A stretch of DNA of 64,000 bases from Chloroflexota bacterium (GCA_965220045.1 OZ244803.1:1601585-1665584); one strand, 5' to 3'. Shown: positions 833 through 53,485, numbered from the stretch's first letter. Numbers and translations are program-made. The notes: generated by a model from the letters alone, not told the origin.

Positions 833-2005
833 ATGGTTTACGACCTGATTGTCCGCAACGGCGACATCATCGACCCGGTTGAGAACCGACGTTTCGTAGG
901 CGACATCGGCGTTGCCGACGGCAAGATCGCAACTTTGACGGAGGGCACGCTCGCGGGCAGCGGTCGGCAGGAGCTCAATGTAGCCGGCCATATCGTAACG
1001 CCCGGTCTGGTGGACCTGCACGGCCACTGCTACTGGGGAGTAGGCGGCACGGGACTGGACCCGGATCTGGTAGGCGCACGCCATGGTGTAACCACCTGGA
1101 TCGATCCCGGCAGCAGCGGTGCCGCTACGTTTCCTGCCTTTCGGCGCTTCATCATCGAGCAATCGCAGGTGCGGGTGGTTCCCTTGCTCAATCTCAGCGC
1201 CAAGGGTCTCGTGCATTGTCAGGATTTCGGCGAACTTTACGACATTCGTTACATCGACTCTGATCTCACTGCCGCCACCATTGAGCGTCACCGCGACCTC
1301 ATTGCCGGTATCAAAATACGCGCGGGTCGCTCCAGCACCGGTCCGATGGGCATGACCCCGCTGTGGATCGGCCGCGAACTCTGCGACCAGCTCTCAATTC
1401 CGCTCATGGTGCATATTTCGAACGTCGCGCCCACCCTTCAGGAGTTGCTCCCCATACTGCGAAAGGGCGACATCGTCACCCATTGCTTTCACGGCAAGGT
1501 GGGAGGGGTATTAATGCGTGGCCGGGTGCGCGACGAGGCGTGGGCGGCACGCGAGCGCGGCGTGCTCTTCGACATCGGTCACGGCAATAGCAGCTTTTCG
1601 TTTCCGGTTACCGAAGCCGCGCTGGAACAGGGATTTCCGCCGGACTCCATCAGTACAGACTTGCACCAAGTGAGCATTCGCAGCACGGCCCAGAGCTTTC
1701 CCCACATAATGTCCAAGTTTCTCGCCCTCGGCATGGATATCGAGACTGTAGTCCGCCTCAGCACACTCACACCGGCTCAAGCCGTGAACCGCGACCACCT
1801 CTGCGGCCGCCTCAGCGTCGGCGCTCCCGCCGACATTGCGGTATTCGGCATCAACACCGGCCACGTCACCTTCCAAGACCCGCAGGGAGAGGAGCGCGAC
1901 GGCACGGCAAGGGTAGAAAACACGCATACAATTGCGAAAGGCGTGCTCCTCGATCGCAGCCGCGATCCGTTGGGCGACAAACCGTTTCCCATGGATACGA
2001 TTTGA
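833..2005 (+). CDS. Amidohydrolase-family metal-dependent hydrolase (dihydroorotase/deacetylase-like)
   Basis: N-terminal DLIVRNGDIID...GHIVTPGLVDLHGHCYWG (HxH metal site) and later HISN..HCFHG..DIGHG motifs typical of the amidohydrolase superfamily. ATG at 833 is preceded by GAGGT; the track start at 827 is GTG. Confidence 0.6.
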   Translation: MVYDLIVRNGDIIDPVENRRFVGDIGVADGKIATLTEGTLAGSGRQELNVAGHIVTPGLVDLHGHCYWGVGGTGLDPDLVGARHGVTTWIDPGSSGAATFPAFRRFIIEQSQVRVVPLLNLSAKGLVHCQDFGELYDIRYIDSDLTAATIERHRDLIAGIKIRAGRSSTGPMGMTPLWIGRELCDQLSIPLMVHISNVAPTLQELLPILRKGDIVTHCFHGKVGGVLMRGRVRDEAWAARERGVLFDIGHGNSSFSFPVTEAALEQGFPPDSISTDLHQVSIRSTAQSFPHIMSKFLALGMDIETVVRLSTLTPAQAVNRDHLCGRLSVGAPADIAVFGINTGHVTFQDPQGEERDGTARVENTHTIAKGVLLDRSRDPLGDKPFPMDTI

Positions 2006-2054
2006 TGCGTCGCGGGCAACTGAGCGGGCAGCTCTTCTCCCGTCCCGCAGAGTA

Positions 2055-3617
2055 ATGGGCGTCATGCAAATCAAGTTCCTCCATGCGGCCGACATTCACC
2101 TCGGTTACCAGCAATACGGCTTGCCTGAGCGCTACGACGACTTCGCTGACGCATTCCAGTGGGTAGTAAACACTGCTCTCGAAGAGCGCGTCGATTTTCT
2201 CCTGATCGCGGGAGACCTGTTTGAGAAACGCACCCTCGACCCGCGCACGTTACTTATAGCCGTCATCGAATTTGAACGGCTTCAGGAAGCAGGAATCCCC
2301 GTCGTCGCCATCGAAGGCAACCACGAGCGCTCATACGGGGACAGTTTCTCCTGGCTGGAGTACCTCAATCAGAGGGACCTTCTCTATCTGTTGGACTGCT
2401 CGCGTCGCGAAGAGAGTTGGCAGCTCCAGCTGTGGAACCAAGTAGAACGGACCGGAGGGTACGTAGATCTTGCCGGTGCGCGAGTCTACGGCCTCAGATA
2501 TCAAGGCGCTCAGACCGGCGCGGCATTGAATGAAATTGGCTCGGCAATTGCCGCTGCCCCACCACATGGCGCGGCGTTCTCCGTATTTGTCGCCCACACT
2601 TCTGTGGAAGGCTATTTCGACCAAGGTCACCCATTCGCGCGCCAGCAGGACTTGGCTTCTCTCCGGCGGTGCATAGACTATCTCGCTCTTGGGCACGTTC
2701 ACGCGCCGTACAAGGGCGTTGTCGGCAATGGGGATTGGTTCTACAATCCGGGGAGTCCGGAATCGTGGAGCAGCGAAGAGTGGCAATACCAAAGCAAGGG
2801 CGCTTTCCTCGTACAGGTCGACACCGATCGGGAGCCAACCTTCAAAGCTGAGCCGCGCAACTATCCCGGTCGCCGGCCTTTCGTGCGCATCCGGCAAGAA
2901 CTGGATGCCTGCCCGAGCCCGGGTGTGCTCATGAGACTATTGGAGGAGAAGATTCAGCGCGAACCGCTGCCGAGCGCCGTCACAGAGTCGGAGCCGGAGA
3001 ACGCCACGCCACAGGGCATTTCAGACAACCAACGCCTTGCAACAAAGTCCCCGGTGGTGGAGATCGTGCTCACTGGTGTCGCACGCTTTGCCCGCACGGA
3101 GATCGATACAGCAGCTATTGAGCAACTAGCTAGAAAACACTTCGATCCGCTGCTCGTCCGCGTTCGTTCAACCTTGCAGGAAGCCCCAACCAGCGTGGTT
3201 GAGGACGGCCATGTCCTCCCGCGAGAAGTCCTTGAACGCACGGTCATTGAAGACCTCATTCGCGCCGATGATCGCTATGCCTCAGCGGCGGGTGATCTAG
3301 GCCAAAGCGCAATTCTGCTCAAGCAAATGGTCCTCGACGGAGTACCGGCCGCCGAGATTGCAGACGAATTGCAGCGCCGCCTACGTGTGCTTTCAGGTAC
3401 TGGAAGAGACGGCGTGCAGGGACAGACCGTGGCTAGCCTGCAGGAACGCACGGCGTCCCAAGGGAGTGGTAAAGACTTGACCGAAAGCGCCCCGGCCGCG
3501 CCTCCAGAGAGTGCTGAAGAGCAGGCGCCGGAGGCACAGCCCGATGAGACCATCGCGCAAGGGTCATTAATCCGGGCCGCTACCACAAGCGATGGGCATT
3601 CCAGCTCAACGGACTAG
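2055..3617 (+). CDS. sbcD: SbcD/Mre11-family DNA double-strand-break repair nuclease
   Basis: Calcineurin-like phosphoesterase motifs in SbcD order: FLHAADIHLG, IAGDLFE, IEGNHE, GHVH. Lies immediately upstream of sbcC (7-nt gap). Start taken at the internal ATG (MGVMQIKF); 2064 is possible. The upstream track extension overlaps the amidohydrolase. Confidence 0.8.
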   Translation: MGVMQIKFLHAADIHLGYQQYGLPERYDDFADAFQWVVNTALEERVDFLLIAGDLFEKRTLDPRTLLIAVIEFERLQEAGIPVVAIEGNHERSYGDSFSWLEYLNQRDLLYLLDCSRREESWQLQLWNQVERTGGYVDLAGARVYGLRYQGAQTGAALNEIGSAIAAAPPHGAAFSVFVAHTSVEGYFDQGHPFARQQDLASLRRCIDYLALGHVHAPYKGVVGNGDWFYNPGSPESWSSEEWQYQSKGAFLVQVDTDREPTFKAEPRNYPGRRPFVRIRQELDACPSPGVLMRLLEEKIQREPLPSAVTESEPENATPQGISDNQRLATKSPVVEIVLTGVARFARTEIDTAAIEQLARKHFDPLLVRVRSTLQEAPTSVVEDGHVLPREVLERTVIEDLIRADDRYASAAGDLGQSAILLKQMVLDGVPAAEIADELQRRLRVLSGTGRDGVQGQTVASLQERTASQGSGKDLTESAPAAPPESAEEQAPEAQPDETIAQGSLIRAATTSDGHSSSTD

Positions 3618-3623
3618 CGAACC

Positions 3624-6533
3624 ATGCGCGTTACCCAAGTCTCTCTCAAGAACATTAAGAGCTACCAGGAAGCCTCGATCTGCTTGCCGCAGGGCACGAT
3701 TGCGATTTCCGGGCCGAATGGCGCCGGCAAGAGCACCATTCTCGAAGCCATTGGCTTTGCGCTTTTCGACTTCTTGCCGTACCGCAATCAGCGTGACTTC
3801 ATGCGCCACAATGCCCTGGAGGCCGATGTGCGGGTGACGTTTCTCTCGCGCTTGGATGAGTGCCGGTATCAGGCGGTGCGTACGCTCAAGCGCGCCACCG
3901 GCAGTACGGAGACCGTAACTTCGACGTACTATGTCTATAGCCTAGACAGAAGTGAGCGTGTGGCCCAGCAGAAGCAGGCAGTGCAAGACTTCCTGCGGGC
4001 GCACATCGGCCTGGAAGATTACGACGACTTGGCGCGCGTCTTCGACAATGTTCTTGGTGTGCCGCAAGGTCGCCTGACTGCAGACTTTCAGCTTACACCG
4101 GCCCAGCGCAAGAGCACTTTTGATCCCCTGCTGCACGTCGACACGTACCGCCACGCCTATGATCGACTGCGGGATGTCCTTGACACTCTGCAAGGAAGAG
4201 CCTCGGACCAGGAGCGGCGCGTCTCTGCGCTGGAGCCGGAGGCGGCGCGACTACCGGAAGCTGTTGCCGCGCTCGCGGGATTTGAAGAGCAGCAAGCGGT
4301 TGCCGCACTGGAAGCCCGCAAACTGGCCGCAACGCAAGCGGAATTGCAGGATGAATTGCAGCGCCTGGAAGCGCAGCGGCGCACACTTGAGCAACAACGA
4401 GACCTTGCCAAGCGCCTCACACAGCAGCAAGCCCTCTTGCAGAGTCGCCTTGAGGCCGAGCACGAGCATGTCAACAGCGCCAAGCACGCGGTGGCGCTCA
4501 CGGGTTCGGCCGCCCCGGGGTACGCCTCCTTTCGCCGGGCGCAAGCAGAGCTTGCCAAACTTGAAGAGGACCGCGCGTCTGCCGAAGCGCTGAGCAAAAC
4601 CGGGCACGCTGCGGAGAGAAAGCTTGTAGCCTTGCAGACCCGGCAGGAGGCACTTGAAGCGGCGGTGGAAGAGGCCAGCACAGCGGCGGCGCAAAGAGAC
4701 GCGCTCATGCCGCAAGTGGCTGAACAAGAGCGTTTGGAAGCGTTGGTGCAGGATTTCAATGTCAATCTTGGCTTCGCGCGCCAGTTTGGGGAGCAGGCAA
4801 CACAAGTGCTGGGGAGAGTTGCCGTAGACGACGAAATTCGACTAACCCATGCAGCGAGTGACCTGCCCGCAGAGACTGCGTCTGCCGCAACTGCGCGTGC
4901 CCAGCTTGAGAACCAGCACAAGCATCTGCAGGAAGTCGGGCTCTGGCTCGAACAACGCACGGATTTACGAAATCGCCACCAACGCTTGCAGTCCGAGCAA
5001 AAAGAGTTCAAGAAAGCGGTGGCGCACTGTGAATCGTTCATGCCGGCTGCAGCGCGCTTGGACGGGCTGGAGCAGCAATTGCAGGGGGTACGGGACCGGA
5101 TTAGCGCTTACGCAGCGCAACGTCGTTTCAATCAAGAATCGCAGGCGATGGCCGCCGACGGTCTATGTCCATTCTTTAGGGACACTTGCCCGAAAGTGGA
5201 TGATGGCCAAAGCCTCATTCCAGTCATCGCCCGCCTAATACGTGACTCCGCGGGTCGGGCCGAACAGGCGCAGGCTGAAAGACAAGAGCTAGAAGTAGCT
5301 GTTGCCGAGGCCGAGGCCGCGCAGAAGCAAGTGGACCGCCTTCATGATCTCACGCCCCGCTTACGGCAGCTTGAAGGAGAACTGCACGACATTGAGGCGC
5401 AGATTCAAGACCTGTCACACCGTATCGGCAAGCGCCTCCACGGCGCATGGTCGGCACCGGCTATTGCGGCGCTGCTCGCGCAACTGCAAGCTACGGGCGA
5501 GTCGCTCGAGCGGCAGCGTGCAGAACTGGGCAATCCTCGCCAGGCCGCGGAGCGTCTGTACGGTACCGCCAACGAGTACACACAACGCGCGGAAGCATTG
5601 ACTGCGGCTAAGCGCGAACACGATGCGATCGAAGGGGAAGTCAGCTCCATTGCCGAGAGACTGGCGCCGTACGCGGACCTCGAAGAACGAGTGCGAATGC
5701 AACGCCAAACAGTTGAAGCCCACCGAGCAGACTACGAGGTCTACTTGCAGCACGAGAAAACGGCCGCCGAACTGCCACGACGCGAAGAGTCATTGGCAGC
5801 CCTCGTGGCTGATACGGAAGAGAATACGCGGGCTGTGGCGGAGTCTCAACACCTTCTTGCGGAGTGCGAGGAAGCCTGGGATCCGACCGCGCTCGCGGCA
5901 GCGCAAGCGCGCCTAAACCAGACTCAGAGCCAATTAGGGGCAGCCAACGAACGGCGCCGCCTTCTCGGTGAGCAGATCGAGCGGGCTCAGCGGGAAGTCG
6001 CTGGGCTGGAAGAAGCGACGCGGGATTTAAGCGAGGCCAGACAAGCGCTGGAAGAGGCATGCAACGTGCTGGCGGTTGCGGGCTTCTTGCGCAACGTCAT
6101 TCGCGACGCCGGCCCCCACATCACGCTGCACCTTATCCAGCAGATTTCCGCGGAGGCCAATACGCTCTTCAGTGAGGTCATGGGGGACGCTTCCGCCGAA
6201 CTTTCCCTCACTGAAGACTATGACATCATCCTGGAGCAACACGGGCACCGGCGCGCATTCGCGCAGTTGTCCGGCGGCGAGCAGATGAGCGCGGCGGTCG
6301 CCGTCCGGCTTGGCTTGTTGCGGCAATTGTCCGACATCAACATTGCCTTCTTCGACGAGCCCACCCAGAATATGGATGCCGAGCGCCGCCACAATCTGGC
6401 CGAGCAACTCGAACGCGTGACGGGGTTCAACCAACTCTTCGTCATCAGCCACGACGATACCTTCGAACCTATGGTCTCCACGGTGTTGCGAGTACGCAAG
6501 GAGAATGGCGTGAGCACGGTGGAAGTGGAGTAG
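3624..6533 (+). CDS. sbcC: SbcC/Rad50-family SMC-like ATPase
   Basis: N-terminal Walker A (ISGPNGAGKSTILEAIGFALF). About 650 aa of Q/A/E/L/R-rich predicted coiled coil with a central cysteine pair (LCPFFRDTCP, candidate zinc hook). C-terminal ABC signature LSGGEQMSAAVAVRLGL and Walker B/D-loop IAFFDEPTQNMD. Confidence 0.85.
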   Translation: MRVTQVSLKNIKSYQEASICLPQGTIAISGPNGAGKSTILEAIGFALFDFLPYRNQRDFMRHNALEADVRVTFLSRLDECRYQAVRTLKRATGSTETVTSTYYVYSLDRSERVAQQKQAVQDFLRAHIGLEDYDDLARVFDNVLGVPQGRLTADFQLTPAQRKSTFDPLLHVDTYRHAYDRLRDVLDTLQGRASDQERRVSALEPEAARLPEAVAALAGFEEQQAVAALEARKLAATQAELQDELQRLEAQRRTLEQQRDLAKRLTQQQALLQSRLEAEHEHVNSAKHAVALTGSAAPGYASFRRAQAELAKLEEDRASAEALSKTGHAAERKLVALQTRQEALEAAVEEASTAAAQRDALMPQVAEQERLEALVQDFNVNLGFARQFGEQATQVLGRVAVDDEIRLTHAASDLPAETASAATARAQLENQHKHLQEVGLWLEQRTDLRNRHQRLQSEQKEFKKAVAHCESFMPAAARLDGLEQQLQGVRDRISAYAAQRRFNQESQAMAADGLCPFFRDTCPKVDDGQSLIPVIARLIRDSAGRAEQAQAERQELEVAVAEAEAAQKQVDRLHDLTPRLRQLEGELHDIEAQIQDLSHRIGKRLHGAWSAPAIAALLAQLQATGESLERQRAELGNPRQAAERLYGTANEYTQRAEALTAAKREHDAIEGEVSSIAERLAPYADLEERVRMQRQTVEAHRADYEVYLQHEKTAAELPRREESLAALVADTEENTRAVAESQHLLAECEEAWDPTALAAAQARLNQTQSQLGAANERRRLLGEQIERAQREVAGLEEATRDLSEARQALEEACNVLAVAGFLRNVIRDAGPHITLHLIQQISAEANTLFSEVMGDASAELSLTEDYDIILEQHGHRRAFAQLSGGEQMSAAVAVRLGLLRQLSDINIAFFDEPTQNMDAERRHNLAEQLERVTGFNQLFVISHDDTFEPMVSTVLRVRKENGVSTVEVE

Positions 6534-6567
6534 CGGTTAGTTTGGCGACTAATGGCCCCAATCATCG

Positions 6568-7860
6568 GTGGTCTCAATCTGCTATGGCTATGCGTGCCAC
6601 TATAGTCTTGTCCGCCAAGCGTGCAATTGGCCGACCCATCAAACAAGCGCGGAGCGATTTGTGTTCTACAGTGACAAAGTGATCAATGCGCTCAGTCAGA
6701 AGCGCGCGGAACTGACGCAGCTCGATGCAGAGCAACAGGCCCGTCTGCGGGAGCTGTTTGCCGCGTGTGATGGGCTCTCAGGCATGACCTCGGCGGACAT
6801 TCGCGCACGCCTTGCTTCCGTGGAAGCGCCGGGTGCCTTGCCAACCGAGGAGTTCGACAGTGTGCCGGGCTTCAAAGTCCAGTTTCCGGAAGTTTGGGAC
6901 AATCTCTCGGCAATGCGTCTATGGGCATCGAAAATTCTTGCGGGTGTCACCGTGTGTGCCGTAGACGGCAGTCAATTGCCCGCCAGTAAGGACTTTCCTC
7001 TGCCTGTTGCGGTTGCTCAAGTCGCCTGGTTTACCAATCCACATGCCGCAGACTCGCCGCACGAGAAAGACGCGCACGTCGAGGTGCTGACGCCGCAAGA
7101 GCTACTGAAAGAGAATGTAGACGCGAGTCTCATGGTCGCTCTGCATCGCTACGAGCTTGAAGTAGCACGGATCAACACGTTCATGCGCGAGCAGTGTTCC
7201 CGAGACGAGCGCGCGGTTGCCCTCTTCGACGGCTCGCTAACCGTGACATTCGCCGGCTCCTATTCGGATGAAGTGCGCAAACGGTATCGCGCAGCGGCAG
7301 TAAGCATGCTGCGCACGTCGGAAGAGTGTCGCATTCCGCTCGTGGCCTATATCGACCGCTCGCGTGCCAACGACTTCACGACGATGCTCTGCCATTTAGG
7401 CGGCATCAGTCGTGCCAATGCTTCACTGATCAGCGACGCGGCAGTCTTGGATAGGCTCATAGACAATGAAGGTTTTTGGCGGACTGCCGCATTCGTGTGC
7501 CAGCGTCCGGACGTGGCAAAGAGTGAGAACTACCAAGACAACCAATCCGGCGAGACCTATAGCGACCAGATTTGCTTTACGTACGTGAAACTCAACAGCG
7601 GGCGGCCCGTCCGGCTGGAGTTTCCCAGGTGGCTGCTCCGCGCCGGTCTGCTTGACAGCGTGATAGACTGGGTGCGAGCCGAGGCGATCGTTGGCGGCGG
7701 GTATCCGTACGCCATCCAAGCGGCCGACGCTGCCGCCGTGATTACTTTTCAGGACCGCCAGCGATTTATGCGCGCCCTGGAAGAGTTCGGCCGTCACCAC
7801 AACATCGGTACCTTGCAGGCATCCGCGAAGCAGGCCAGTAAAGAGCGGCGACGGGCGTGA
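6568..7860 (+). CDS. nurA: NurA-like 5'-3' nuclease (RNase H-like fold) candidate
   Basis: Sits 35 nt after sbcC on the same strand. Contains a (hydrophobic)4-D-G-S motif (VCAVDGSQLP) resembling NurA motif I. Size (about 400-430 aa) and the Mre11/Rad50/HerA neighbourhood fit NurA. The start is GTG and uncertain (other in-frame GTGs near 6661/6682). Confidence 0.45.
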   Translation: MVSICYGYACHYSLVRQACNWPTHQTSAERFVFYSDKVINALSQKRAELTQLDAEQQARLRELFAACDGLSGMTSADIRARLASVEAPGALPTEEFDSVPGFKVQFPEVWDNLSAMRLWASKILAGVTVCAVDGSQLPASKDFPLPVAVAQVAWFTNPHAADSPHEKDAHVEVLTPQELLKENVDASLMVALHRYELEVARINTFMREQCSRDERAVALFDGSLTVTFAGSYSDEVRKRYRAAAVSMLRTSEECRIPLVAYIDRSRANDFTTMLCHLGGISRANASLISDAAVLDRLIDNEGFWRTAAFVCQRPDVAKSENYQDNQSGETYSDQICFTYVKLNSGRPVRLEFPRWLLRAGLLDSVIDWVRAEAIVGGGYPYAIQAADAAAVITFQDRQRFMRALEEFGRHHNIGTLQASAKQASKERRRA

Positions 7861-7934
7861 ATTCTCAGGAGTCGGTGTGCGGGCGTGAGTGTGCAGGCCT
7901 GGATGTACACTGTATTAGCATTGTTCGCGGAGTC

Positions 7935-8060
7935 ACCGTTCGCCCCCGTATCGAGTACGGGGCAAGCTCTGAGCCTGCCTGTCCTGAGCTTGCCGAAGGG
8001 TCGCAGGGCACTTGTACATGCTTCGACAGGGCTACGGCGAAGCAGTCTCACAGTACGAAT
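7935..8060. repeat. Family-A dispersed palindromic repeat (REP/MITE-like), copy 1
   Basis: Contains CCCCGTATCGAGTACGGGG hairpin plus GCAAGCTCTGAGCCTGCCTGTCCTGAGCTTGCCGAAGGGTCG. The same modules recur near 13.3, 26.4, 29.4, 37.05, 40.78 and 53.43 kb. Confidence 0.7.
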
Positions 8061-8126
8061 GAAAAGCATAGGCTCTGCAAACACGCACCAAATGACAATA
8101 TGACCAGGCTGTAAGAGGCGGCAACC

Positions 8127-8723
8127 ATGCCAGTGATCGGGCGCATCGTCAAGTCCAATTCCCATACCGACTACGTTTGCCAAGTCTTCGCTCCACGGGA
8201 GACGGAGCACGATCCCGATCCACGCGATTACGCCTTCGGACGCTTCGTAAAGGCCCCAATTGGTCCTGCCGATGGGCGCACAGCCGTCGGTATCGTCTAC
8301 GACACCATTCTCCTCAATCCGGAATATGGCAGCCTCGGCCCCCGCTTGAATCCTCCCTCCGAGCAGGCGATGCTCGCGCCGGATTACCTTATGGAAAAGG
8401 CGACGGCAGTCGGCATCATCGTCGTTGGACTGCAGCATGGGGATGCAATCGAGCACGGGGTCATTCGGCTCTCACTCCCCGTTGACGCGGAGGTCACCAG
8501 CCTGGATGACGCGGAAACCCGCCGCTTCCACCTAGTAGACGGAAAGCTCACGCTTGGCTATCTTCCCAGCCTCGTCTCGCATTCAAGTCCCTTGGTCACA
8601 GAGCTGGGGCTCGGCGTCATTCGTCATCTTCTCACGCTCTTCGACGATCCGGGCGACCAGCGCCTGCTGCGCACGCTCGCCTCTCACTTCTCCTGGCAGG
8701 CGAGAGTCACGCCGCTTGGCTAG
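8127..8723 (+). CDS. Hypothetical protein (198 aa) embedded between the NurA-like and HerA-like genes
   Basis: ATG preceded by AGAGG and protein-like composition. No family recognised. The N-terminus (VIGRIVKSNSHTDYVCQVF...GRFVKAPIG...AVGIVYDTILLN) weakly resembles the N-terminal barrel region of the downstream HerA-like protein (IVGIAKGPGDTPNEYTFVT...). Confidence 0.4.
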   Translation: MPVIGRIVKSNSHTDYVCQVFAPRETEHDPDPRDYAFGRFVKAPIGPADGRTAVGIVYDTILLNPEYGSLGPRLNPPSEQAMLAPDYLMEKATAVGIIVVGLQHGDAIEHGVIRLSLPVDAEVTSLDDAETRRFHLVDGKLTLGYLPSLVSHSSPLVTELGLGVIRHLLTLFDDPGDQRLLRTLASHFSWQARVTPLG

Positions 8724-9051
8724 AATTCATCGAATTCATGCTCCGCTTTGTGTAGACCCGCCCATCGCCAGGCTTCGAACCTGCCACAGCGTGACCGTAC
8801 CTCGGCGCAGGCCTGCAACCGGCGCTACCGTGCCTGCAATTGGCCATGCTATGCATCTCTGCGTTTGATGTGACAGCACCGGGGCCTGGCTCCCACTTCT
8901 TGACGCGCAAAATCAATACGATCTAGGGCATGGCGGTTAGCTGTAGAAGCAACGCATGAATGCCTGTCCCATCCGCTAGTGGTGCGGTAGCTCTGGTAAA
9001 CTAAACGGGCACACGAAGACCCTCCCGCAAACAGAACGAGGCAATGAGCGT

Positions 9052-9825
9052 ATGCGCAAAAACCCTGTTAAGAACCTCCTCAAGGCGGGTAAGCCCGCTA
9101 TCGGCACCTGGCTTACTCTTGGCGATCCTCTGGCAACGGAATCTTTGGCGCACCTGGACTTCGACTGGCTCAACGTCGATATGGAGCACGGATCCATCGA
9201 CGTGCGGGAAACCCGGGCACTCTTCCAGGTTATCAACACGACCGACGTCGTACCCACGGCGCGCGTGCCCTGGAACGATCACGTGTGGATCAAGCGTGTG
9301 CTCGATGCCGGCGCATACGGCGTGGTGGTGCCGATGGTGCGCACGCGCGAGGAAGCCGAGCGCGCCGTGGCCGCCTGCCGCTATCCGCCCGACGGCATTC
9401 GCAGCATTGGCAGCGGACGCAATCACTATGCCTTTCGCGGCACGCAGGCCGACTATCTTGCCCGTGCTAACGATGAGCTTCTCGTCATCATCCAGATCGA
9501 GCACGCTGATGCCATCCGGCAACTCGACGACATCCTCAGCGTGCCCGGCATCGACGCGGCCTTCATCGGCCCCAATGACCTCTGCGCCTCCATGGGCATC
9601 CCGCCCAGCACCGATAGCGAGCATCCTGACTTTGAGTCTGCTGTCAGCCAGGTTGTCACCTCTAGCCGCAAACATGGCGTCGCGCCGGGCATCCACACGA
9701 GTTCGGGTGAGGCGCTGACCAGGCGGCTCGAGCAGGGCTTTCGCTACCTGGGCCTTGCCAACGATCAGCGCCTGCTCATCAAGGGCGCAACCGAAGAGTT
9801 AGCCGTCATTCGGCGTGAACCGTAA
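9052..9825 (+). CDS. HpcH/HpaI-family aldolase (2-keto-3-deoxy-sugar acid / 2,4-dihydroxyhept-2-enedioate aldolase-like)
   Basis: Full-length similarity pattern to class II HpcH aldolases: KAGKPAIGTWLTLGDP...DFDWLNVDMEHG...GAYGVVVPMVRTREEAE...CRYPPDGIRSIG. ATG with upstream GAGG. Confidence 0.75.
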   Translation: MRKNPVKNLLKAGKPAIGTWLTLGDPLATESLAHLDFDWLNVDMEHGSIDVRETRALFQVINTTDVVPTARVPWNDHVWIKRVLDAGAYGVVVPMVRTREEAERAVAACRYPPDGIRSIGSGRNHYAFRGTQADYLARANDELLVIIQIEHADAIRQLDDILSVPGIDAAFIGPNDLCASMGIPPSTDSEHPDFESAVSQVVTSSRKHGVAPGIHTSSGEALTRRLEQGFRYLGLANDQRLLIKGATEELAVIRREP

Positions 9826-9864
9826 ATGGTAACTTGCTTTGGAGGCCATTGCATAGCCAGGGTC

Positions 9865-9965
9865 GGAGGCGCAAAGTCCCCTTTCCATTGAGGGGACCTT
9901 TGCGTAATCCTTGCAACAGCGTGGTAGTCCCCTCTCCCTTGACGGGAGAGGGTTAGGGTGAGGGT
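9865..9965. repeat. Hairpin cluster downstream of the aldolase (family-C element; terminator-like)
   Basis: GCAAAGTCCCCTTTCCATTGAGGGGACCTTTGC and CCCTCTCCC-TTGAC-GGGAGAGGG inverted repeats, followed by GGGTTAGGGTGAGGGTG. A related inverted copy lies at about 62.94-63.01 kb and a CCCTTCTCCC-TGA-GGGAGAGG variant at about 22.80 kb. Confidence 0.5.
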
Positions 9966-10046
9966 GAATCTTCGTCAATTTGGAATGCGGCACACACAGG
10001 CATCACCGCGTAGGCGCGCAAACGGCTTAGCTGAGGATAACGATTG

Positions 10047-11921
10047 ATGATTGTTGGCATTGCCAAAGGCCCCGGCGACACACCGAACGAATACACATTC
10101 GTCACGCCCGATACCGAGCGGCGCGTAAAGACGAGCGAATTCGTCTATTACGAAGCGGATGTCGACGGCACCCAGCGGCAGATCTTGGGCCGCGTGATTC
10201 GGCGCATCCCGTTGCGACTCTACCCAGATTCATTTCTGGCGCACCCGGAAGTGGACCCGGCGCAGATGGCGGCAATGGTTGGCTACTACCAGAAGAGTGT
10301 ACCAACCGGGGAAGCTTGGGATGACGCGAACGAGGAGTCCGCCGAGCTCTTCGAAATCCATGTCAGCATCATGGGCTATCACGATGCGCAATTGAGCGCC
10401 TTCGTCAACCCACGCATTCCCCCGCGCATCGGTTGGAAAATCTACCTTGCTCCTGACAACGCGTTGGCGGAGGTGCTGAACCGCGTCGCCTTCGACTGGG
10501 ACAATGCCGAAGCGCAATCGGGTGGAGCATTTGTAGGCTCGCTGTTGTCACGTCCTGCCTTCAATCCGCGAGCGGACCAACCCGACGGTGTCCCTGTGGT
10601 CCTGGACGTCCGCTCTATCACGGCAACTCACATGGCCATCATCGCCGGCACCGGCGCGGGCAAGAGTTACTTGGCCTCGGTGCTCATTGAAGAGATGATG
10701 AAACCCATCAACCGCGCCAGTATCTTGGTAATCGATCCTCACGGCGAATACGACACACTCGAAGAGATCCGCAATGCTGGTGAGTTTGCCAGCAGCGACG
10801 GCTACAAGGCAGCAGTGAAGACCGTGCCCCAGGACCAGGTGAAGATCCGCGTCTCCGATCTCACGTTTAACGACATGCGCTTCTTGCTTGGGGCACAGTT
10901 CGGCCTCTCAGGACCTATGGAGTACGTGCTGCGAGTGGCGATGGACCGGGTAGAAGGCGAGCGCAAGGACAAGACTGCCTGGACGACGAACGATCTCTAC
11001 GCGGCATTGGCCTACATGCAGGGCGGCGAGGAAGAGCCGCAAGCGGAGGATATCCGTCATTCCCGCGCAAGCGGGAATCCATCCTCAGACGCTGCCGATC
11101 TTGGTTGGCTCGATGATGCTGGCAAGACCGAGACGCAGACTTCGAGTGCCAAGCCTGATTTCCAAATGCGCGGCAGCGCGCGGGCATTGGACTGGCGGCT
11201 CAAGAGTCTCTTTGCCGAGTCACCGAATTTCGATAACATCGAGTCCATCAACCTCCACGATGTCTTTCGACCTGGGCTATGCTCGGTCTTACAGCTCAAC
11301 GAGATCGACCGCCGCCAGCAGCAAGTGATTGTGGCGGTGCTCCTGCGCATGGTCTGGAAGGCGCGCATGAACGCCGCGAAGGGCATCGGCTCCCCACTGG
11401 ACCGGCTCGACTATCCGGTATTCATCTTGCTCGAAGAGGCCCATCACTTCGCGCCGGCAAACGAAGATGTGGTCACTACCAACATTCTGAAGACAATTCT
11501 CGCTGAGGGTCGCAAGTTCGGTGTCGGTGTCGGCCTGATCAGCCAGCGTCCGGGCAAGCTCGACTCCGACGTGCTCTCCCAGTGCATGACGCAATTCCTG
11601 CTGCGCATCGTCAACGAATACGATCAAAGCAGCGTGGCTGCCTCCGTGGAGAGCGCTAGCCATGACCTGCTGGCAGAACTGCCCGCACTATCGAAGGGCC
11701 AAGCAATCGTGGCCGGAGCCGCGGTAAACACGCCGCTCTCCATTCGTGTCAGGCAGAGGATTACGCGCCACGGCGGTGTAGAGCCCGACGCTCCAAGTGA
11801 GTGGGCGCAGTACTTCTCCGCTGAGGCGCGCCGCCGCCGGGAAGTGGACAATTCAGGACTGCCCGCTGGCCCGCCTCGCGGTCGGAGCAATATTCTGCGT
11901 AAGAGCGGAAACGGTCGCTAA
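10047..11921 (+). CDS. herA: HerA-like FtsK/HerA-superfamily ATPase/helicase (DUF87-type)
   Basis: Walker A HMAIIAGTGAGKSYLAS. Conserved acidic motifs LVIDPHGEY and FILLEEAHHFAP (Walker B). GLISQRPGKLD (arginine finger region). N-terminal barrel-like domain. ATG at 10047 is preceded by GAGGAT; the track start at 10044 is TTG. Confidence 0.75.
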   Translation: MIVGIAKGPGDTPNEYTFVTPDTERRVKTSEFVYYEADVDGTQRQILGRVIRRIPLRLYPDSFLAHPEVDPAQMAAMVGYYQKSVPTGEAWDDANEESAELFEIHVSIMGYHDAQLSAFVNPRIPPRIGWKIYLAPDNALAEVLNRVAFDWDNAEAQSGGAFVGSLLSRPAFNPRADQPDGVPVVLDVRSITATHMAIIAGTGAGKSYLASVLIEEMMKPINRASILVIDPHGEYDTLEEIRNAGEFASSDGYKAAVKTVPQDQVKIRVSDLTFNDMRFLLGAQFGLSGPMEYVLRVAMDRVEGERKDKTAWTTNDLYAALAYMQGGEEEPQAEDIRHSRASGNPSSDAADLGWLDDAGKTETQTSSAKPDFQMRGSARALDWRLKSLFAESPNFDNIESINLHDVFRPGLCSVLQLNEIDRRQQQVIVAVLLRMVWKARMNAAKGIGSPLDRLDYPVFILLEEAHHFAPANEDVVTTNILKTILAEGRKFGVGVGLISQRPGKLDSDVLSQCMTQFLLRIVNEYDQSSVAASVESASHDLLAELPALSKGQAIVAGAAVNTPLSIRVRQRITRHGGVEPDAPSEWAQYFSAEARRRREVDNSGLPAGPPRGRSNILRKSGNGR

Positions 11922-12014
11922 GCACGAGCCGCTGAGCCGTACCATACACTTCTGAAGCGTTTGCCGCCAAGATCACGCGCCATACCACATGGCTGCAGAA
12001 CAGGATTCACTCCC

Positions 12015-13070
12015 ATGCCCTTCAACTATGAATACACGCGCCACATACGCGCAGGCTTCATTGGCTGCGGCAAGCACGCCTACCAGAGTATCCTGCCCAG
12101 TTTTCAATTCGCCCCGGTAGAGTTGGTCGCCGTCTGCGACCTTATAGCAGAACGCGCCCGGTTTTGCGCGCGGCAGTTCGGTGCCCTGCGGTCGTACACC
12201 GACTATGCCGAAATGCTGGCCCAGGAAGAGCTGGACGCGGTCTTCGTGGTGCTCAATCACGATGCGCGGGGACGCCCCCAGTACGCGCCGGTGGCAATCG
12301 ACGTCCTGCGCGCGGGCGTTCACGTCTGGATTGAGAAACCGCCGGCTTCTACCCTGGCAGAGATCGAGGACATGCAAGCGGCACGGGACGAGGCGCAACG
12401 CTTCGTCCAGGTGGGCTTCAAGAAACCATTCTATCCCGCCATCCAGCACGCAAAGCAGTTGATGGCCCAACCGGAATTTGGCGCGCCCACGTCGGCGTAC
12501 GTCCATTATGCCGTGGACCTGCCGCCAGTCGCGGGACGCCCCCACAGTCCCGAGATGATGCGCTTCCTCCAAATCGGCTGCCATCCACTCTCGATCCTGC
12601 AATACCTGCTTGGTCCGGCACACACGCTCTACTTTGCCGATGAAGCGCGGTGGGGCAGTTCGCTCGGCGTCTTCACGTTTGCCAACGGCAGCATCGGCTG
12701 CCTGCATCAGGCCGCAGGAAAGGGAGAGAACGCGCCTTGGGACCGCGTGGAGGTGAACGGCGAAGGCGCCTCGCTGGTCGTCGAAAACGGCGTCGACCTC
12801 ACGTACTACCCACCGGGCGCGCCGCGTTCGCGGGAGTCCTTCGTCAGCGCTGACGCCAGCGCGCCGCGCCGCTGGCAGCCCGACTTCTCCCACGGACGCC
12901 TGGCCAACAAGGGCCTCTTTCTTCTGGGCTACGCCCCCGAAATCATCGCCTTTGCCGAAAGCGTGCTCAACGATACACCACCCACCACGGCCACCCTTGA
13001 AGACGCCCACGACGTGATCCGCATGTACCTCGGCTACACGCAGCCGGCCGGACAGGTCATAGCCCTTTAG
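12015..13070 (+). CDS. Gfo/Idh/MocA-family NAD(P)-dependent oxidoreductase
   Basis: N-terminal Rossmann region IRAGFIGCGKHAY and the family's EKP motif (VHVWIEKPPASTLAE). Internal ATG start chosen; the upstream track extension lacks coding support. Confidence 0.65.
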   Translation: MPFNYEYTRHIRAGFIGCGKHAYQSILPSFQFAPVELVAVCDLIAERARFCARQFGALRSYTDYAEMLAQEELDAVFVVLNHDARGRPQYAPVAIDVLRAGVHVWIEKPPASTLAEIEDMQAARDEAQRFVQVGFKKPFYPAIQHAKQLMAQPEFGAPTSAYVHYAVDLPPVAGRPHSPEMMRFLQIGCHPLSILQYLLGPAHTLYFADEARWGSSLGVFTFANGSIGCLHQAAGKGENAPWDRVEVNGEGASLVVENGVDLTYYPPGAPRSRESFVSADASAPRRWQPDFSHGRLANKGLFLLGYAPEIIAFAESVLNDTPPTTATLEDAHDVIRMYLGYTQPAGQVIAL

Positions 13071-13184: not shown

Positions 13185-13372
13185 ACCTCTTGTAGCGCAG
13201 GGGCTTGTCCCCCCGCCTCTTCTATTCCCCCTTGGCTTAGACCAATGGTGAGCTCAGAAAACGGCCGAACTGTGACAAGGAATTCCACACCCCGTTCACC
13301 CTGAGCCTGCCTGTCCTGAGCTAGTCGAAGGGTCGAAGAGCGTACACGGTTCGACAAGCTCACCGCGAACGG
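13185..13372. repeat. Composite repeat region between convergent genes: a family-B copy (GTAGCGCAGGGGCTTGTCCCCCCGC) plus a family-A copy
   Basis: The same sequence modules recur at 36.0/36.2 kb (family B) and at the family-A sites. Confidence 0.6.
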
Positions 13373-26129: not shown

Positions 26130-26475
26130 TACCCGCTAACTCCGGTAGCGCAGGTTTGCAACCCGCGCTTACCTGGCAGAAGCGCGATACGTGCTGTGCG
26201 ACTCTCTTCTTCGACTGAACGAGGCAAGCATGCCGAATCCGGTCCTGATGGGAAACGTGGAGCTGAAGTAGACCAGAGATTGTCTCAGAAGTGCAACGCT
26301 AAGTGCTAACCTACCCTTCAACAGGCTCAGGGCGAACGTAAGTGCTAACCTGCCCTGCGACCCTTCGGCAAGCTCCGGACAGGCAGGCTCAGAGCTTGCC
26401 CCGTACTCGATACGGGGGCTAACGAAAGTGGTTGAAACCCCTTCGACAGGCTCAGGGCGAACGATACTGAGTGTA
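26130..26475. repeat. Repeat-dense convergent intergenic region: one family-B copy (CCGGTAGCGCAGGTTTGCAACCCGCGC) followed by two family-A copies
   Basis: Contains GCCCCGTACTCGATACGGGGGC, GACAGGCAGGCTCAGAGCTTGCC and CTTCGACAGGCTCAGGGCGAACG modules. No ORF of protein-like composition. Confidence 0.7.
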
Positions 26476-36909: not shown

Positions 36910-37004
36910 GTGAATTTGTCATTCTCCGGTCAAGGATACCGACTATGAGGCGAATGGTATGGCCGACCGGCCCCTCAATTCCCTGAAAATAGCGTGACCA
37001 GGCC

Positions 37005-37100
37005 GTTCGCCCCCGTATCTTTCGATACGCTGTATCGGTCGATACTCCTATCGAGTACGGGGCAGGCTCTGAGCATCGTCGAAGGGTGAACGGCGAAGGT
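37005..37100. repeat. Family-A dispersed repeat copy
   Basis: GCCCCCGTATCTTTCGATACGCTGTATCGGTCGATACTCCTATCGAGTACGGGGCAGGCTCTGAGCATCGTCGAAGGGTGAACGG. Confidence 0.65.
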
Positions 37101-53394: not shown

Positions 53395-53485
53395 ACTACA
53401 AACGGCCCTTCGACCCTTCGGCAAGCTCAGGACAGGCAGGCTCAGAGCTTGCCCCGTACTCGATACGGGGGCGAACGGACAACAG
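53395..53485. repeat. Family-A dispersed repeat copy
   Basis: CCTTCGACCCTTCGGCAAGCTCAGGACAGGCAGGCTCAGAGCTTGCCCCGTACTCGATACGGGGGCGAACGG, nearly identical to the 26.4-kb copy. Confidence 0.7.

Follow-up and report, generated by a model that had tools for sequence, protein, structure and literature searches.

What is an archaeal-style set of DNA-end-processing genes doing in an uncultured Chloroflexota bacterium, and which of the genes found with it belong to it? The question arises from a 64,000-nucleotide stretch of DNA (OZ244803.1:1601585-1665584 of GCA_965220045.1; hereafter the window), in which a sequence-only reading had proposed a four-component Mre11/Rad50/NurA/HerA module on one strand, with two further genes inserted into it. 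Our Pfam profile searches and motif inspection confirmed that the Mre11-Rad50-NurA-HerA gene set is complete, with all of its genes on the + strand and at coordinates essentially as claimed. The count of two inserted genes did not survive: only the gene for an HpcH/HpaI-family aldolase is an insertion, and the other, encoding a 198-residue protein of the family DUF8166, is a conserved fifth member of the module, to judge from the gene order across related loci and a predicted HAS-barrel fold. The cassette and the elements within it are as follows.

2064-3617, + strand: Mre11-like metallophosphoesterase nuclease, 517 residues (Pfam Metallophos, 3e-13)
3624-6533, + strand: Rad50-like SMC ATPase, 969 residues (Pfam SMC_N, 3.3e-20; AAA_23, 2.3e-19)
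6661-7860, + strand: NurA nuclease, 399 residues, GTG start (PF09376, 8e-34)
7857-8111, unstranded: inserted element of ~255 nucleotides between the nurA stop and the DUF8166 start (alignment break against the relative L001)
8127-8723, + strand: DUF8166 (PF26500) protein, 198 residues, HAS-barrel plus helical hairpin (predicted fold)
9052-9825, + strand: HpcH/HpaI-family aldolase, 257 residues (Pfam HpcH_HpaI, 5e-39)
9826-10046, unstranded: aldolase-herA spacer with two GC-rich hairpins (RNA fold z = -3.2)
10047-11921, + strand: HerA hexameric translocase/ATPase, 624 residues (Pfam DUF87, 6.4e-34)

The Mre11 and HerA starts are those of the gene caller (an alternative ATG lies at 2055, and the herA open reading frame (ORF) runs from 10044). 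The mre11 and rad50 genes are as tightly linked as had been supposed, with a measured gap of 6 rather than 7 nucleotides. The next gene does encode NurA, but the spacing of 35 nucleotides given for it depended on a start at 6568 (a 430-residue ORF) that is over-extended by 31 codons: the NurA homologs (n=204) are about 398–403 residues long and all begin at the equivalent of the GTG at 6661, where the genome's own gene calls also place the start. The rad50-nurA gap is therefore 127 nucleotides, which matches that of relatives. The nearest genomes to the window are metagenome-assembled genomes (MAGs) of uncultured Chloroflexota with chromosomes of 3.3–3.7 Mb, and the closest complete relative, against which DNA was compared, is L001 (OZ244814.1; 89% NurA identity). 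All five cassette ORFs are intact, and all except Mre11, for which coverage was 85–100%, aligned essentially over their full length to their relatives (56–97% identity). The clustering is far beyond chance, as the same genes recur in the same order across two domains of life, in dozens of genomes.

The NurA product matched PF09376, a domain that all of its homologs carry, over the full length of the profile (positions 2-254 of 254; 117.7 bits, the cutoff being 21), and contains the hydrophobic-DGS motif VCAVDGSQ, whose Asp is D102. This residue, together with E167, D190 and D356, is invariant in 26 sequences with identities down to 37%, and we infer these four acidic positions to be active-site residues. 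Searches of the PDB sequences with the NurA profile (E-values of 0.01 or less) and the DUF8166 profile (E-values of 10 or less) gave no match, and the folds of both proteins were therefore obtained by prediction. The predicted NurA fold is RNase H-like/PIWI-like, in keeping with what had been expected of this candidate, and is nearest to the solved NurA structures; its third-best structural match was TdpB. The C-terminus of the protein (window 7828-7857; also loci L020-L081) is a near-invariant basic tail, S-x-K-x-x-S-K-x-R-R-R, that solo NurAs with no neighboring DUF8166 or HerA (Blastocatellia, cyanobacteria) also retain, and it may be a partner- or DNA-binding peptide.

The downstream ATPase had been assigned to the HerA/FtsK superfamily on its GTGAGKS and DPHGEY motifs, an assignment that was upheld by the DUF87 ('Helicase HerA central domain') match and by the motifs themselves (Walker A GTGAGKS at residue 201, DPHGEY at 230, and Walker B LLEEAH at 461). 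The best NCBIfam score was to helicase_HerA (4.5e-52, 177 bits), above that to the antiphage HerA model (2.7e-27, 95 bits), with further NCBIfam and Pfam matches to CedD (1.4e-17), TraD (8.9e-5), VirB4 (1e-4) and FtsK_SpoIIIE (9e-3); the protein thus does not classify as a conjugative ATPase of the TraG/VirB4/FtsK type. A profile search of the PDB had Thermococcus kodakarensis HerA (9e-69) as its best match and S. solfataricus HerA (1e-53) as the next, followed at far lower ranks by defence HerAs (1e-36 to 1e-23), TdpA (6e-7) and Deinococcus radiodurans HerA (1e-5). Residues 1-180 had no Pfam match even at an E-value of 10; the profile aligns colinearly with the T. kodakarensis and S. solfataricus HerAs from about residue 88-102 onward, and the N-terminal region is of equivalent length.

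For Mre11, the phosphoesterase motifs DIH (residue 10), GD (50), GNHE (85) and GHVH (210) were all found, followed by a long low-complexity C-terminal tail that had no Pfam match even at an E-value of 10. Rad50 has the head motifs of its family (Walker A GPNGAGKS at 30, signature LSGGE at 882, Walker B FFDEP at 909, and H-loop ISHD at 941), and its SMC_N match covers residues 3-964, with a long coiled coil dividing the ABC-type head. No CxxC zinc hook is present anywhere in the protein; the coiled-coil apex carries CPFFRDTC instead (C-x6-C; residues 515-522, window 5166-5189; conserved form GLCPFFxDxCPKV), a hook that recurs in the related Chloroflexota loci L022, L026, L030, L039 and L042. 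CxxC is kept in the cassette Rad50s of L076, L038 and the haloarchaeal plasmids described below. The best NCBIfam matches of Mre11 were archaeal (Mre11_Pyroc, 6.8e-33, 114 bits, vs. sbcD, 1.1e-14, 55 bits), and Rad50 likewise scored higher against the archaeal Rad50 model (9.2e-47, 160 bits) than against sbcC (3.1e-22, 78 bits). The window Mre11, Rad50, NurA and HerA are closer to the archaeal than to the bacterial (SbcCD, Deinococcus) versions. The scores nonetheless fall far under the NCBIfam equivalog cutoffs (e.g., 114 vs. 600 bits for Mre11_Pyroc, which was not reached, and 177 vs. 970 bits for helicase_HerA), which places the Mre11, Rad50 and HerA proteins in a separate lineage.

The conservation of the fifth gene was established by scanning 81 related loci with tblastn and iterated profiles. 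Among the Chloroflexota, DUF8166 lies directly after nurA in 29 of the 30 loci with enough sequence, Rad50 is found upstream in 22 of 26, and HerA within 10 kb downstream in 17 of 24. All 38 DUF8166 copies from NurA-gathered loci directly follow nurA, and every complete cassette has DUF8166 between nurA and herA. Contiguous five-gene operons occur outside the window's clade at ten loci (L019, L022, L025, L030, L038, L039, L042, L062, L076 and L079), where the genes are 3–90 nucleotides apart or overlap; the gaps at L090 are 3–86 nucleotides. The 198-residue gene is therefore a conserved fifth component of the cassette and not an insertion into it. What the window holds is accordingly not a contiguous four-gene archaeal operon free of other parts, as it has DUF8166 as the fifth member, plus the aldolase gene and the 255-nucleotide insertion.

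The same five-gene order is present on haloarchaeal plasmids of Natrinema zhouii, halophilic archaeon DL31 and Halobaculum marinum (L085, L086 and L087; NZ_CP084885.1, CP002989.1 and NZ_CP119991.1, respectively), where it reads metallophosphoesterase, SMC ATPase, NurA, hypothetical protein and DUF87 ATPase, adjacent genes often overlapping. For the Natrinema and DL31 plasmids, tblastn showed each of the five products to be a homolog of its window counterpart (28–40% identity), and a fourth haloarchaeal megaplasmid, that of Halorussus salilacus, gave matches to NurA and DUF8166. Haloferax volcanii is reported to be without HerA and NurA (PMC7776575), so that the haloarchaeal cassette looks accessory. 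These cassettes are preceded by genes for an ATP-binding protein and a DEAD/DEAH helicase (Natrinema, DL31) or a phospholipase D (PLD)-family protein (Halobaculum), and near them are also genes for a UvrD helicase, an adenine methyltransferase and a transposase, as well as another Mre11/Rad50-like pair. The DEAD helicase and ATP-binding genes upstream have no counterpart in the Chloroflexota, save for one weak, generic superfamily 2 helicase match.

What kind of protein is the fifth component? PF26500 is assigned by precomputed Pfam to the identical protein and to all 65 homologs; our own search, with a Pfam copy that lacks the PF26500 model, gave no match at E-values up to 10. The family is small, with 342 clusters recovered by an exhaustive hidden Markov model search of 1.84 billion representatives, and its listed matches are stand-alone proteins of ~200 residues, with the exception of fragments and of a small number of longer proteins (up to 448 residues). 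The papers found by our literature search make no mention of it. An AF2 model built on a 25-sequence alignment (predicted local distance difference test score 80, predicted template-modelling score 0.77) consists of a beta-barrel at the N-terminus and a helical hairpin at the C-terminus, and the top 50 Foldseek matches to this model were HerA chains only (E-values of 2e-5 to 5e-4, probability 1.00). Two independent structure-comparison methods agreed on the HerA-N-terminal-like fold, and the model matches TdpA and the defence HerAs as well as it does the repair HerAs. As the predicted fold matches only the N-terminal (HAS-barrel) regions of HerA, DUF8166 is best modelled as a free-standing HAS-barrel-type protein. 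A recent split or duplication of herA as its origin is unsupported, since hhalign detected no similarity between DUF8166 and the N-terminus of its cognate HerA (probability 0.3%); as this HerA also has an N-terminal region of normal length of its own, DUF8166 is an extra module and not a split-off piece of herA. The family has 31 invariant residues and ~32% identity between Chloroflexota and Halobacteria. Its most conserved motif, YDTxLLNPxFGxxGPRL...PDYxxEK (residues 58-91), lies within a low-confidence loop of the model (residues 63-90), which suggests an interaction loop.

Comparison of gene neighborhoods, which showed the same genes linked in dozens of genomes, also showed that herA is split off in some of them. 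In a sister sub-clade (L008, L010, L012 and L014-L017) the locus stops after DUF8166, and in one of these genomes (L015) a herA of 77% identity lies ~600 kb away, with the aldolase gene before it and the GFO oxidoreductase, aldo-keto reductase and sucCD genes after it. In the Anaerolineae locus L089 (8179-11719), which has no adjacent nurA, the order is DUF8166, EamA transporter and herA, the EamA gene having entered independently at the very DUF8166|herA junction that the aldolase gene occupies in the window. From the distant herA and the EamA insertion together, it follows that herA is a separable unit and that the DUF8166|herA junction is a recurrent breakpoint. Other variants are a nurA-DUF8166-herA cluster without Mre11-Rad50 (Anaerolineae, cyanobacteria), a nurA-DUF8166 pair (two Blastocatellia) and solo nurA (most Acidobacteria, Leptolyngbya). 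A gene for a 1708-residue DEAD/Helicase_C plus UvrD protein follows DUF8166 in L008 (12710-17836), in genomes of the L010 and L014-L017 type, and in L084.

Only in the window's clade does the aldolase gene separate DUF8166 from herA; neither haloarchaea nor other Chloroflexota have it in their contiguous five-gene operons, and where the cluster is broken it moves together with herA. It is a lineage-specific insertion and lies outside the machine. The 255-nucleotide element is specific to this genome or strain: nurA and DUF8166 are ~13 nucleotides apart in close relatives, and colinearity with the L001 DNA breaks exactly at 7856/8112, leaving ~255 extra nucleotides in the window. Inside this insertion, at 7936-8010 (+ strand), is a 75-nucleotide dispersed repeat resembling repetitive extragenic palindromes or miniature inverted-repeat transposable elements, with two hairpins (CCGTTCGCCCCCGTATCGAGTACGGGGCAAGCTCTGAGCCTGCCTGTCCTGAGCTTGCCGAAGGGTCG); its other copies are at 53405-53478 and 26351-26424 (both - strand; 97–99% identity), with partial copies at 13301-13335 and 37003-37074.

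The repeats or hairpins that had been noted between the genes are thus real, as the aldolase-herA spacer also has two strong hairpins within 9868-9955, at ~9868-9900 (GCAAAGTCCCC...GGGGACCTTTGC) and ~9929-9955 (CCCCTCTCCC...GGGAGAGGG), followed by TTAGGGTGAGGGTG. None of 200 shuffled sequences was as stable as this spacer, which does not align to L001 and is not conserved; its hairpins have no T-run and no terminator call, and their sequence is not repeated elsewhere in the window. Scans for sigma-70 promoters and intrinsic terminators over 1900-12200 gave no more hits than expected from shuffled sequence, and none in the spacers. The limits of the operons were therefore taken from the comparative breakpoints. 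The suggestion that the parts of the module are separately transcribed is on this footing plausible for herA, whose separability in sister genomes supports it better than any promoter signal. A 95-nucleotide 'tRNA-Cys' called by ARAGORN in the DUF8166-aldolase spacer (8760-8854, - strand) is probably a false positive, having no Rfam tRNA match even at an E-value of 1 and no tRNA call at the homologous site in 14 relatives. At gathering thresholds, no part of the window matched an Rfam family, and the spacers gave only chance-level matches.

How would such a cassette work? The comparison of loci shows the ancestral unit to be a single tight mre11-rad50-nurA-DUF8166-herA operon, into which the aldolase gene was inserted between DUF8166 and herA in the window's lineage, and the 255-nucleotide repeat element between nurA and DUF8166 in this genome; with both insertions the module reads as at least two units, mre11-rad50-nurA(-DUF8166) and aldolase-herA. 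By analogy to the characterized archaeal and Deinococcus systems, with the Sulfolobus, Thermococcus and Deinococcus complexes as models (PMC3326311, PMC9960219, PMC12977600), Mre11-Rad50 would recognize, tether and clip DNA ends, and a HerA hexamer would draw the DNA along its central channel and on into a NurA dimer docked at its HAS-barrel face, where NurA would digest the strand or strands delivered to it. We propose DUF8166 as a structural subunit of the NurA-HerA interface, where it could act as a HAS-barrel collar, additional or detachable, or as an adaptor, recruiting or gating NurA; alternatively, it could bridge to Mre11-Rad50. Its docking-domain fold and its genetic coupling to nurA, and then to herA, make a place in the NurA-HerA interface the most likely of these in our model. 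Taken as a whole, we favor, on balance, a five-component, ATP-driven machine that processes linear double-stranded DNA ends for recombination and repair.

The strongest rival is an immune system against foreign DNA, in which Mre11-Rad50 would sense invading linear ends and HerA-NurA, with DUF8166 as regulator, would shred them in the manner of Sir2-HerA, DUF4297-HerA and TdpAB. This had also been raised by the sequence-only reading, in part because of a gene pair upstream:

23-686: HEPN-type (NTase_sub_bind) / minimal nucleotidyltransferase (MNT) pair resembling a toxin-antitoxin system, the first gene cut by the window start

The pair is real, and is also found at the equivalent place in L002, L003 and L082 (in L002 and L003 a HicB-like gene precedes it), but it is absent from the closest relative, L001. 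The matches of HerA to PADLOC HerA models (best 1.6e-46) and of Rad50 to LmuB and mad3 are to generic ATPase cores, and the repair HerAs outrank the defence HerAs in both of the searches given above; NurA and DUF8166 had no PADLOC match. A role in defence would also suit the TdpB match of NurA, the equally good fit of DUF8166 to TdpA and the defence HerAs, the megaplasmid copies lying beside helicase, PLD-family, methyltransferase and transposase genes in haloarchaea, and the antiviral role that has been suggested for archaeal HerA-NurA (PMC12977600). However, no Sir2, DUF4297, dnd or phosphorothioate (PT) genes were among the genes called within 10 kb on either side, and no NurA or DUF8166 was found in 50,697 phage records and the IMG/VR contigs.

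The surroundings of the cassette are not those of a variable defence island. In about 11 genomes of the clade (NurA identity down to 56%) the flanks are shared, with an amidohydrolase gene upstream and the GFO oxidoreductase, aldo-keto reductase and sucCD (succinyl-CoA synthetase) genes downstream, and 7 further genomes keep the upstream flank alone, so that synteny among metabolic and housekeeping genes is stable in about 18 genomes; in other lineages the flanks are relA, rpsF-ssb-rpsR, dnaB, H+-PPase and cofactor genes. The chromosomal locus is stably inherited among housekeeping genes in the window's clade. Given these flanks and the lack of phage or viral copies, we rank DNA-end processing for repair or recombination above defence, which has little support from its context and which we consider rather unlikely.

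Several observations pull away from DNA-end processing in repair. The distribution is patchy, over phyla and domains, and the haloarchaeal copies are on megaplasmids; Mre11, Rad50 and NurA are 57–69% identical between relatives, compared with 80–93% for the flanking genes. Patchiness, megaplasmid location and the fast evolution of the nuclease and SMC genes would also fit accessory or conflict systems. As Mre11, Rad50 and HerA are well under the equivalog cutoffs and form a separate lineage, their function could differ from that of their characterized relatives. A scan for LexA/Cheo boxes (GAAC-N4-GTTC, at most 1 mismatch) gave chance-level results, with none upstream of the module. For DUF8166, a role would have to be read from a predicted fold and gene order, its top motif falls in a low-confidence loop, and it has no sequence similarity to the N-terminus of its cognate HerA. 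Lastly, a 2026 study of T. kodakarensis HerA-NurA questions a role in end resection even in archaea (PMC12977600).

With these points in mind, we also entertain, tentatively, a combined possibility: that DUF8166 is an unrecognized subunit of HerA-NurA machines of a distinct class, a detachable HAS-barrel ring or adaptor coupling or gating the NurA dimer on HerA or bridging HerA-NurA to Mre11-Rad50, in a horizontally mobile cross-domain cassette (Chloroflexota, cyanobacteria, haloarchaeal megaplasmids) whose role may be the destruction of linear foreign DNA rather than, or besides, break repair. As a side observation, no genes of the neighborhood evolve faster than those of Mre11, Rad50 and NurA, and in L013 NurA is 56% identical and Rad50 69%, which suggests that the nurA allele there was replaced by recombination.

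A further alternative is that the system is the classical four-component one and that DUF8166 is a hitch-hiking bystander. The protein has no sequence similarity to any characterized protein, the junctions around its gene tolerate insertions (the 255-nucleotide element, the aldolase gene, and EamA in L089), and many Acidobacteria NurAs of this subfamily occur without it. Nevertheless, a bystander would hardly be expected to keep the nurA-DUF8166-herA position from Chloroflexota to Halobacteria at ~32% identity, with genes that often overlap or are ~13 nucleotides apart, or to belong to so small a family in which all NurA-gathered copies directly follow nurA and the lone copy without an adjacent nurA (L089) is one gene upstream of herA. 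Together with the 31 invariant residues and a predicted fold that is that of the HerA domain that docks NurA, this makes the bystander alternative very improbable. Just as little do we credit a role in DNA transfer or segregation (conjugation- or transjugation-like export, Ced-like import, or plasmid partition), which is highly unlikely as the HerA matches to CedD, TraD and VirB4 are much weaker than those to HerA, no membrane, pilus or relaxase gene is adjacent in any locus inspected, and herA is tightly linked to genes for two nucleases and a Rad50-type SMC protein, even though older comparative genomics saw HerA-NurA operons as related to plasmid partition (PMC2588523) and the haloarchaeal plasmids are flagged MPF_T in PLSDB.

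Where does a five-component machine for DNA-end processing stand among known systems? The closest is the herA-mre11-rad50-nurA operon of thermophilic archaea (Sulfolobus/Saccharolobus, Pyrococcus, Thermococcus), which has the same four families on one strand, ancestrally in one operon; the solved structures nearest to the window HerA and NurA are those from T. kodakarensis and S. solfataricus, and Mre11 and Rad50 score best against archaeal NCBIfam models. It differs from the cassette described here in gene order (mre11-rad50-nurA-X-herA in the window), in lacking the DUF8166 gene that is obligatory here, in its hosts (mesophilic-type Chloroflexota MAGs and haloarchaeal plasmids in our case), in the equivalog scores given above, and in its CxxC Rad50 hook, for which this clade has C-x6-C; in this genome the operon is, moreover, interrupted twice. 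The NurA-HerA pair of D. radiodurans and Thermus thermophilus is likewise bacterial and shares an N-terminal extension of NurA, but is a distant relative without linkage to Mre11-Rad50 and without DUF8166. In the literature we found, bacterial HerA-NurA is described from Deinococcus-Thermus only, as a two-gene operon unlinked to Mre11-Rad50 (PMC9960219, PMC12977600).

In the anti-phage complexes Sir2-HerA/Nezha, DUF4297-HerA and TdpAB, the effector, a nuclease or an NADase, likewise sits on the HAS-barrel face of a HerA hexamer; TdpB resembles NurA, and the DUF8166 fold matches the N-termini of the HerAs of such complexes. The window cassette differs from these in having no Sir2, DUF4297 or PT-modification partner, in its linkage to Mre11-Rad50 and its housekeeping neighborhoods, and in a sequence relatedness that is much lower to them than to the repair HerAs. 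Bacterial SbcCD is similarly an adjacent metallophosphoesterase nuclease and SMC-type ATPase; the window pair, however, scores higher on archaeal models (114 vs. 55 and 160 vs. 78 bits) and sits in a NurA-HerA cassette.

The cooperation between HerA-NurA and Mre11-Rad50, and whether it serves resection or simple degradation, is still debated even in archaea (PMC12977600). The loci described here, bacterial ones and those of the haloarchaeal plasmids, add a separate lineage that links all four genes and invariably has, besides, an uncharacterized fifth protein with the predicted fold of the NurA-docking domain of HerA; the main value of the finding lies in this conserved fifth subunit and in a cassette that crosses domains. 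As the lineage is non-thermophilic and has natural split variants, with herA 600 kb away, NurA-DUF8166 pairs and solo NurAs, it could be used to dissect the assembly and regulation of HerA-NurA, and the same variants could help to test whether HerA-NurA coupled to Mre11-Rad50 acts in repair or in defence.

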